Positions 6,085-6,714 of a DNA stretch of 7,768 nucleotides are shown piece after piece. Every line of letters begins with the position of its first letter. The first letter of the stretch is position 1. The translations under genes and the position numbers were made by a program. The notes under the pieces are model-generated. The model was not told the DNA's origin. It worked only from the letters and a program-made list of their open reading frames with translations, and did no database searches. Source of the stretch: a virus (lineage: Duplodnaviria > Heunggongvirae > Uroviricota > Caudoviricetes); the IMG/VR virus record IMGVR_UViG_2681813154_000006; one strand, 5' to 3'.

Positions 6085-6714
6085 ATGAAGCATGAAGAAA
6101 TGAATCAGCGATTCAATCACCTGGAAAATGAAATCACTGAGCTTAATAAAAAATTGTCGGCGTTGGTGAGTTCTGAAGATGAAAACAAACGCCGCGATGA
6201 GCATTATGCGGCGATTTACGATTACTGCCACAAAGTCGCTCACGAGACTTTTATGAAGTTTTTGCAGGAAAAGTTTTTACCGGCCGCATTGTCAGAAAAA
6301 GAGGCGGCTTACCTGCGGCCTGAGTACGTCATTACGGTTAACAGTGCCGGAGAGGAAGAGCATAAAAGTGATTTTATTGCGTCTGCACCGGATAAAGACC
6401 AGGAACCCCATCGGCCTTTCAGGGTTTCCTGTGAAGAGGGTGAGTTCGTCGTTTATGAGAACGGAAAACCTGTCCGGGCATCGCATCATCACTGCCTGAA
6501 AATTATTAATCTCGCTATCAGATGCCTGAAAGACGAAAACACCAGAGTTATGAAACGCATTGGCCGTTGCATGGGGTATTTGCAGGTGGCGGCAGAGATT
6601 GAAGCACTTGCCAGTGGTGCAGACATGGATGCTGCGGTGCGGGAGGCTCTTCTTCGTGATTTCAATACTCCCCCTTTAAGAAAGAGCCTGATGACTGGAT
6701 CCAGCCGGGGCTGA
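6085..6714 (+). CDS. hypothetical protein, 209 aa, no family recognised
   Basis: ATG 4 nt after the holin stop with GGAGAG upstream. Acidic, no predicted TM segment, N-terminal coiled-coil-like region, and a His/Cys cluster (HHHC-x9-C-x13-C). Visibly more AT-rich than flanking genes. Confidence 0.6.
   Translation: MKHEEMNQRFNHLENEITELNKKLSALVSSEDENKRRDEHYAAIYDYCHKVAHETFMKFLQEKFLPAALSEKEAAYLRPEYVITVNSAGEEEHKSDFIASAPDKDQEPHRPFRVSCEEGEFVVYENGKPVRASHHHCLKIINLAIRCLKDENTRVMKRIGRCMGYLQVAAEIEALASGADMDAAVREALLRDFNTPPLRKSLMTGSSRG

Follow-up and report, generated by a model that had tools for sequence, protein, structure and literature searches.

What is the gene that lies between the pinholin and endolysin genes of the virus record IMGVR_UViG_2681813154_000006 in IMG/VR, and what might it do? 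The stretch of DNA analysed here (the window, 7768 nucleotides (nt) in length) ends in a phage-21-type lysis cassette in which an open reading frame (ORF) of 630 nt, encoding 209 amino acids (aa), separates the gene of the pinholin, S, from that of a signal-arrest-release (SAR) endolysin, R. An initial annotation, made from the letters of the sequence, had described this ORF (the focal gene) as an unrecognised gene with the pattern expected for a moron. As an occupant of this cassette the focal gene is neither new nor unrecognised. It almost certainly belongs to the family that is represented by phrog_1085 and by the 'long YdfR' proteins and that is found in the slot between holin and endolysin genes. 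This family occupies the lysis cassettes of many Escherichia coli, Shigella and Salmonella prophages, including those of Shiga toxin (Stx)-converting phages. Our reading of the whole locus, to which we assign a probability of about 55 %, is that the gene is a late accessory of the phrog_1085 family partnering a DUF1327 module that engages RNase E, and that the copy in the window is probably inactive.

The gene, its family and its place in lysis cassettes

The ATG start codon of the focal gene (position 6085) comes 4 nt after the final base of the holin gene's TAA stop codon (6079–6081), and a GGAG (6073–6076) is found 8 nt upstream of the ATG within the 3′ end of S. The location of the ORF between a holin gene and an endolysin gene, its start 4 nt past the holin stop and its own ribosome-binding site were as initially described. 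The product has no transmembrane segment (maximum Kyte–Doolittle hydropathy over 19 residues, KD19, of 0.76) and is mildly acidic, with an isoelectric point (pI) of 6.1 and 35 Asp and Glu residues against 30 Lys and Arg residues; it is a soluble, cytoplasmic protein, in line with the first description. Homologues were present in more than 200 fetched loci. Pairwise Nei–Gojobori estimates of the ratio of nonsynonymous to synonymous substitution rates (dN/dS) were 0.34 overall, 0.45 for residues 1–64 and 0.22 for residues 109–197, compared with 0.09 for S and 0.06 for R as controls from the same loci. This indicates purifying selection on the focal gene that is several-fold weaker than on S and R. 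The ORF is a genuine gene and not a chance ORF.

A crude consensus scan of positions 5326–7727 detected no promoter on the + strand, and no + strand terminator was found flanking the gene. The gene has no such signals, and its ATG is 4 nt past the S stop codon; for its expression it therefore relies on coupling to S and on the Q-dependent late transcript. It is translationally coupled to the S21-type holin gene. The gene had been thought more AT-rich than its neighbours, which is true of its overall GC content by a small margin (0.475, as compared with 0.50 for S and 0.51 for R) but not of the GC content at third codon positions (GC3), which is equal to that of the neighbours (0.495 versus 0.50–0.53). 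The AT-richness is limited to the first third of the gene (GC 0.41), which codes for a Lys/Glu/Asn-rich helix. Since neither a promoter nor a terminator belonging to the gene was found and its GC3 does not deviate, the proposed moron pattern was not upheld.

The focal protein matched phrog_1085 (PHROGs v4, unknown function) with an E value of 1e-73 over profile positions 117–288 of 296. Protein searches returned 132 relatives, all from E. coli or Shigella, many of which are proteins of 268–333 aa named 'YdfR family' or 'DUF1327 domain-containing'. The focal protein aligns to the C-terminal two thirds of these long forms and is 40–87 % identical to relatives of 185–333 aa (alignment A1). One long form, P0004, matched phrog_1085 from profile position 1 and PF07041 (DUF1327) with an E value of 7e-35, while a Pfam search detected no PF07041 match in the focal protein. 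Searches of Pfam, NCBIfam and PADLOC with the focal protein gave nothing or coiled-coil noise below threshold. The statement that the protein matches no recognisable family thus holds for these three resources but fails for PHROGs and for the protein databases.

The family is mosaic and is built from three modules, namely DUF1327 (~75 aa) with a linker, a coiled coil or helical hairpin, and a conserved C-terminal domain that is preceded by a variable, probably disordered segment. Only the hairpin and C-terminal modules are present in the focal protein (Table 1). The hairpin module (aa 1–64) was also detected by tblastn in other proteins of the slot, joined to DUF1327. An invariant motif, G-R-x-x-x-x-L-Q-x-A, lies within the C-terminal domain and reads GRCMGYLQVAAEIE in the window copy. 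DUF1327 and the C-terminal domain are fused in the forms of 268–333 aa and are encoded by adjacent, separate genes at locus L005, where a gene for a 213-aa protein is followed by one for a 75-aa DUF1327 protein. This occurrence as fusions in some prophages and as split neighbours in others suggests that the two modules probably work together.

An AlphaFold2 (AF2) model of the focal protein based on an alignment with 22 homologues was unusable, with a predicted local distance difference test score (pLDDT) of 51. The relative P0002, which has an intact tail, gave a pLDDT of 70 and a predicted template modelling score (pTM) of 0.43 when Salmonella relatives were included. This model has helices at residues 3–27 and 31–64 (mean pLDDT of 73–91 for 10-residue blocks over residues 1–60), a segment at 78–106 that is probably disordered (pLDDT <50), a three-strand beta meander at 113–131, helices at 134–193 and a short C-terminal helix. 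The predicted hairpin agrees with the coiled-coil-like stretch that had been noticed at the N-terminus. Sequence searches of the PDB, whether by the protein on its own or by a profile of 28 sequences, returned nothing below an E value of 0.05, and the C-terminal domain had no Pfam, PDB or fold match.

It had been assumed that in cassettes of this type S is normally followed directly by R. This was true for only 28 of 75 S21-type cassettes in a holin-anchored IMG/VR sample, which was drawn from the best 80 of at least 597 matches and is a non-random census; the remaining 47 cassettes carried a DUF1327 gene of varied length. As 47 of 75 slots were filled, direct succession of S and R is not the norm for this holin type, and the S–R slot is a recognised, usually occupied accessory position. 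The empty slots bear out the description of the focal gene as a non-core gene of the late operon that is variably present. Approximately 90 loci with a relative were fetched; wherever both anchor genes were present, the relative begins 4 nt past the stop codon of an S21-type holin gene, with an endolysin gene downstream, and the forms seen in the slot were of 185, 209, 213, 217, 222 and 268 aa. The K-12 Qin prophage has the order essQ-ydfR-rrrQ-rzpQ/rzoQ, in which ydfR has the same start relative to the holin gene, and the arrangement in phage mEp460 is as in Qin. The initial annotation had itself named, as an alternative, an ORF already annotated in such cassettes with a known role; the ORF is indeed a common occupant in E. 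coli, Shigella and Stx phages, annotated there as 'hypothetical protein' or 'YdfR family protein', but the known role is missing. Frameshifted or split slot genes, classed as pseudogenes by the Prokaryotic Genome Annotation Pipeline (PGAP), were observed in other E. coli (L004, 2501–3107; L006, 1962–3021). The slot appears to be prone to decay and recombination.

An exhaustive hidden Markov model (HMM) profile search of 1.84 billion representatives yielded 41 proteins, the species representatives of GTDB contained three loci (E. coli, S. flexneri and Escherichia sp.) and IMG/VR contained 185 relatives. The farthest relatives are 'hypothetical proteins' of Salmonella enterica prophages, with identities of 25–37 %, which combine a DUF1327-like head that has diverged with a coiled coil and the shared C-terminal domain; in one of these, P0125, PF07041 was matched below threshold (E value 0.004). 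Scans of IMG/VR and metagenomes for relatives of the Salmonella type gave E. coli-type forms only. The gene order in Salmonella is Q, a HicAB pair, the family gene and then directly a PF16080 holin gene, a lysozyme gene and Rz. Linkage to the lysis cassette is conserved across genera; the holin family and the exact position are not. At L320 (1834–2467) and L324 (3233–3867) the Salmonella gene was observed close to the 3′ side of the HicA/HicB toxin–antitoxin genes, in a cargo region between Q and the holin gene.

A convergent gene of approximately 104 aa (phrog_1853, unknown function) is located directly 3′ of many members of the family. It was seen in E. coli as well as in Salmonella, and the copies from the two share 53 % identity (E value 2e-32). 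In counts for which loci were not de-duplicated, this gene stood beside 72 of 226 loci with the C-terminal domain versus none of 48 DUF1327-only loci. The window is without a phrog_1853 gene, as are the common 185-aa forms. The phrog_1853 gene and the family gene may constitute a two-gene module. Newly defined by this analysis are the modular anatomy of the family (DUF1327 at the head, then a coiled coil, then a C-terminal domain that lacks a Pfam model and any structural relative that could be detected), its strict association, in three genera, with lysis genes and its conserved convergent partner gene.

The 3′ end of the window copy and the state of its prophage

Two features of the window were missed by the initial annotation, namely the frameshifted 3′ end of the focal gene and the breakage of the cassette by an insertion sequence (IS). 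All other family members, including those of Salmonella, end in PPFK-x(2-5)-W-x2-PG-x2-YLK-x-R-[IL]. This tail motif holds several of the most conserved alignment columns and is kept down to 25–30 % identity in Salmonella. The C-terminus of the focal protein is instead PPLRKSLMTGSSRG (also given as LRKSLMTGSSRG), a 1-nt deletion having exchanged the conserved motif for 12 unrelated residues (Table 1). The DNA of the focal gene was 99.8 % identical in six complete E. coli genomes and the identical protein was encoded by 12 IMG/VR contigs. The exact protein was found on at least 1000 contigs, most of them from Shigella flexneri, with the labels 'bacteriophage protein' and 'hypothetical protein'; the copy in L001, an intact prophage, is WP_001300760.1 ('hypothetical protein'). 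The frameshifted allele is not a sequencing error.

The deletion also creates the heptamer C_CCT_TTA (6672–6678), which has the form X_XXY_YYZ and at which a −1 slip would restore the tail. Programmed −1 frameshifting at this site was considered and found to be unsupported, the RNA of the 83 nt 3′ of the heptamer being ordinary and folding no better than shuffled controls (z +0.81). Production of some full-length protein from the Shigella allele by −1 slippage is remotely possible at most.

Colinearity of the window with L001 stops at position 7710. The Rz protein of the window is 98 % identical to that of L001 over residues 1–134 and divergent beyond (BLASTP). Two further loci, L008 and L013, are 99–100 % identical to positions 5956–7768 of the window, and in both the ORF that follows the shared segment encodes a transposase OrfA with an HTH_Tnp_1 domain (IS region at 5687–8138 in L008 and 5692–5994 in L013); an ORF for an rve-domain transposase lies ~1.2 kb beyond OrfA in L008. 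The 58 nt at positions 7711–7768 were found again elsewhere in inverted orientation. Disruption of the spanin genes by the IS indicates that the prophage is defective, and we have very little doubt that the focal copy is frameshifted and sits in a defective prophage. An IS-broken prophage is in keeping with genome decay in Shigella. Because the tail has been lost and the spanin genes are truncated, the window copy is probably inactive; it is most probably an inactive or crippled relic that is clonally fixed in Shigella flexneri and some E. coli. Since the allele is already catalogued, is frameshifted and belongs to a broken prophage, experiments would do poorly to begin with it, and intact alleles are preferable. 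The family as a whole is of moderate interest; the window copy is not.

Table 1. Positions of the focal gene, its modules and its neighbours in the window, with examples of the phrog_1853 gene from other loci
Feature	Position	Strand	Evidence and remarks
Focal ORF	6085..6714	+	ATG start, 630 nt, 209 aa; DUF1327-less form of the long-YdfR/phrog_1085 family, with frameshifted C-terminus
Shine–Dalgarno-like sequence GGGGAGAG	6071..6078	+	Within 3′ end of S; direct reading of the sequence
N-terminal helical-hairpin/coiled-coil module, aa 1–64	6085..6276	+	AF2; matches to phrog_2091, phrog_36381 and phrog_15975
Conserved C-terminal domain, aa 109–197	6409..6675	+	Alignments A1 and A2; AF2 pLDDT ~70–87; lowest dN/dS in the gene, 0.22
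C5 run with 1-nt deletion	6670..6674	+	ACTCC[A/G]CCCTTT in relatives, ACTCCCCCTTT here; DNA alignment A4 with four relatives
Out-of-frame remnant of the conserved tail	6675..6737	+ (−1 frame)	Translates to FKKEPDDWIQPGLTYLKRRI, then stop
Pinholin S, phage-21-type class II holin	5896..6081	+	PF04971, E value 1e-22; phrog_9876 and phrog_20 (holin)
Endolysin R, phage lysozyme	6780..7313	+	PF00959, E value 5e-24; phrog_7
Rz i-spanin, truncated	7310..7714	+	PF03245; 134 aa versus 155 aa in intact L001
Embedded Rz1 o-spanin	7530..7724	+	ORF with lipobox-like LIMVVGC; 3′ end enters foreign IS sequence
End of IS3-family insertion sequence	7711..7768		Interrupts Rz and Rz1
phrog_1853 gene, example in L002	3777-4091	−	Locus outside the window
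phrog_1853 gene, example in L007	3149-3469	−	Locus outside the window
phrog_1853 gene, example in L323	4809-5126	−	Locus outside the window

Candidate functions of the family

In two-hybrid and pull-down experiments, residues 1–72 of K-12 YdfR, which consists of DUF1327 alone, bind the catalytic (N-terminal) half of RNase E, and the protein co-purifies with RNA (PMC13232886). Genes of the focal type would be dispensable accessory genes of the late operon that travel with lysis cassettes. In such a scheme the DUF1327 module would engage RNase E or RNA, the family would act late in infection by modulating the RNA metabolism of the host, and the coiled coil together with the C-terminal domain would be a putative oligomerising or effector half beside DUF1327. 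That the family gene is an accessory and not a part of the lysis machinery is, on balance, the better supposition. A role in RNA metabolism is the most likely of the functions considered because the DUF1327 of K-12 YdfR binds RNase E and co-purifies with RNA; late modulation of host RNA metabolism is put forward as a tentative mechanism, at odds well below even. Searches of the literature yielded no functional study of the C-terminal domain, only the study of YdfR as an RNase E interactor and a passing mention of DUF1327 in a genome comparison. The anatomy of the family, combined with the recently described interaction of YdfR with RNase E, provides a testable lead on late phage function.

Several points weigh against an accessory role in partnership with an RNase E-engaging module. 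The link to RNase E rests on a domain that is absent from the focal protein, and on overexpression, two-hybrid and pull-down data, and overexpression of YdfR barely altered the transcriptome (PMC13232886). Forms without DUF1327 (185–222 aa) are common and intact, from which it follows that the C-terminal domain is evidently able to function alone. The frameshifted allele is otherwise an intact 209-aa ORF and may have partial activity. The missing fold match is weak evidence because the AF2 model is only moderately confident. Finally, a lysis-related role would likewise agree with the tight coupling to holin genes, which two genera have conserved.

Such a role was among those first suggested, in the form of a lysis-timing regulator: a factor in the cytoplasm, synthesised alongside the pinholin, that would modulate either holin triggering or release of the SAR endolysin. 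The gene is always found beside lysis genes, with a start 4 nt past the S21 stop codon in E. coli and Shigella and a start geometry that is constant across all forms and K-12 ydfR, yet it is missing from the 28 closely related S21 cassettes with an empty slot. In Salmonella the gene lies directly 5′ of a different holin gene, which likewise favours this role, but its position relative to the holin gene differs between the genera and its partners belong to unrelated holin families. The product contains no transmembrane or membrane-associating segment, constraint on the gene is far weaker than on S and R, and no likeness to a known antiholin or lysis regulator was detected in Pfam, PHROGs or the PDB. 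A role as lysis regulator is disfavoured because the gene is dispensable in many cassettes, encodes a soluble product, is under relaxed selection and has moved its position in Salmonella; we regard it as unlikely.

The gene could also be cargo for defence, superinfection exclusion or abortive infection, perhaps in a two-gene module whose other member is the convergent phrog_1853 gene. A patchy and highly mosaic family would suit this explanation, as would the location of the Salmonella copies next to HicAB in the cargo region of the late operon. However, PADLOC-DB 2.0 gave nothing for the focal protein, P0002, P0004, P0129 or the phrog_1853 partner, so that the anti-phage role raised in the initial annotation is not supported, and a gene for which no promoter of its own was found should be silent in a lysogen. 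The conserved phrog_1853 gene and its occurrence beside loci with the C-terminal domain and not beside DUF1327-only loci likewise speak for a cargo module, but neither the window nor the common 185-aa forms have the partner, and the locus counts are those given above without de-duplication. Defence cargo is an improbable explanation.

A zinc- or metal-binding regulator was a further candidate. A Cys/His cluster does exist in the focal protein (H134–H136, C137, C147 and C162), but the spacing is HHHC-x9-C-x14-C and not HHHC-x9-C-x13-C as had been reported. Its ligands are not conserved across relatives. Most E. coli relatives have SHQHS...DYL...GRC (HQHS...Y...C at the cluster positions) and the Salmonella relatives have H-R...D/E...GR[C/S/A]; across the family the place of C137 is taken by S or R and that of C147 by Y, D, E, R or H. 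C162 shows no variation in alignment A1, but some of the Salmonella relatives in alignment A2 have S or A there, and H136 is the only nearly invariant residue of the cluster in A2. No match to a zinc-finger family was found in Pfam or the PDB. The metal-site hypothesis was rejected because of this lack of conservation, and metal binding is highly improbable.

A bolder extension of the accessory reading, which we consider decidedly unlikely, is that the coiled coil and C-terminal domain form a new fold and act as the effector half of a mobile late-operon module. This module would have DUF1327 fused or in trans and, at roughly one locus in three, phrog_1853 as well. It would pass between lysis cassettes that are unrelated to each other in prophages of Escherichia, Shigella and Salmonella, Stx phages included, and at the end of infection it would govern either the decay of host RNA or the moment of cell death.

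Surrounding features and comparison with known systems

The counterpart of S in L001 is annotated as 'class II holin family protein', and the N-terminus of R is hydrophobic and SAR-like (maximum KD19 of 1.78 at residue 9). The window contains four runs of 10 N (3470–3479, 5142–5151, 5667–5676 and 5946–5955), the last of which lies within S, and colinearity with complete genomes breaks at two of the four. Positions 1–3469 and 5956–7768 match one prophage (L001, L008) and positions 3480–5945 match another, for example FDAARGOS_944 651023–653279. The window could be a scaffold in which pieces were joined across gaps, or else its mosaic structure could be real. There are two genes for late antiterminator Q, at 2851–3267 (PF06530, 138 aa) and 4197–4886 (PF06323, 229 aa), with an N-terminally truncated DUF968 gene (3499–3840) and rusA (3841–4206) between them. 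Two Q families are unusual in a single prophage, which is consistent with a chimeric or scaffolded structure. A 207-nt direct repeat with 98 % identity and a spacing of 218 nt (5460–5666 and 5678–5884) lies just 5′ of the holin gene. Its copies are split by an N run and a single copy is present in related complete genomes; the repeat could have arisen by true tandem duplication within the leader of the late operon or could be an artefact of assembly. Three tRNA genes, Lys (ttt), Thr (tgt) and Gly (tcc), are located at 5153–5385 between Q and the holin gene, and L001 has Ile-Arg-Thr-Gly at this position.

Phage factors that target host RNase E include T4 Srd, phiKZ Dip and T7 gp0.7, some of which act early in infection. 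No likeness to these three proteins was detected in Pfam, PDB or fold searches of the focal family. A functional analogy with them is possible only by way of the DUF1327 partner module, and the focal gene belongs to a late operon. The morons of the late region of lambdoid phages (bor, lom and stx) resemble the focal gene in being variable, non-essential and in or near the late operon. However, morons have their own promoter and terminator and often a deviant composition, whereas neither signal was found for the focal gene and its GC3 is that of its neighbours.

The closest comparison is with YdfR itself. YdfR of K-12 Qin (PF07041, 103 aa) shares with the focal gene the slot, there between essQ and rrrQ, and the start 4 nt past the holin stop codon, and long YdfR proteins carry the focal sequence as their C-terminal part. 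K-12 YdfR is nonetheless DUF1327 only and the focal protein is without DUF1327, and binding of RNase E and RNA maps to the part that the focal protein lacks. Relative to phrog_1085 as a whole, the focal protein covers positions 117–288 only, the final conserved tail having been lost by frameshift. The Stx phages also provide homologues of the focal gene. In the Stx2a phage Stx2_12E129, a homologue annotated as a hypothetical protein lies between holin and endolysin with 63 % identity over residues 1–200 and is followed by a convergent phrog_1853 gene, and orf5 of Stx2-converting phage 86 ('YdfR family protein') has 58 % identity over residues 63–201. Unlike the window copy, the copies of Stx2_12E129 and phage 86 both retain the conserved C-terminal tail.

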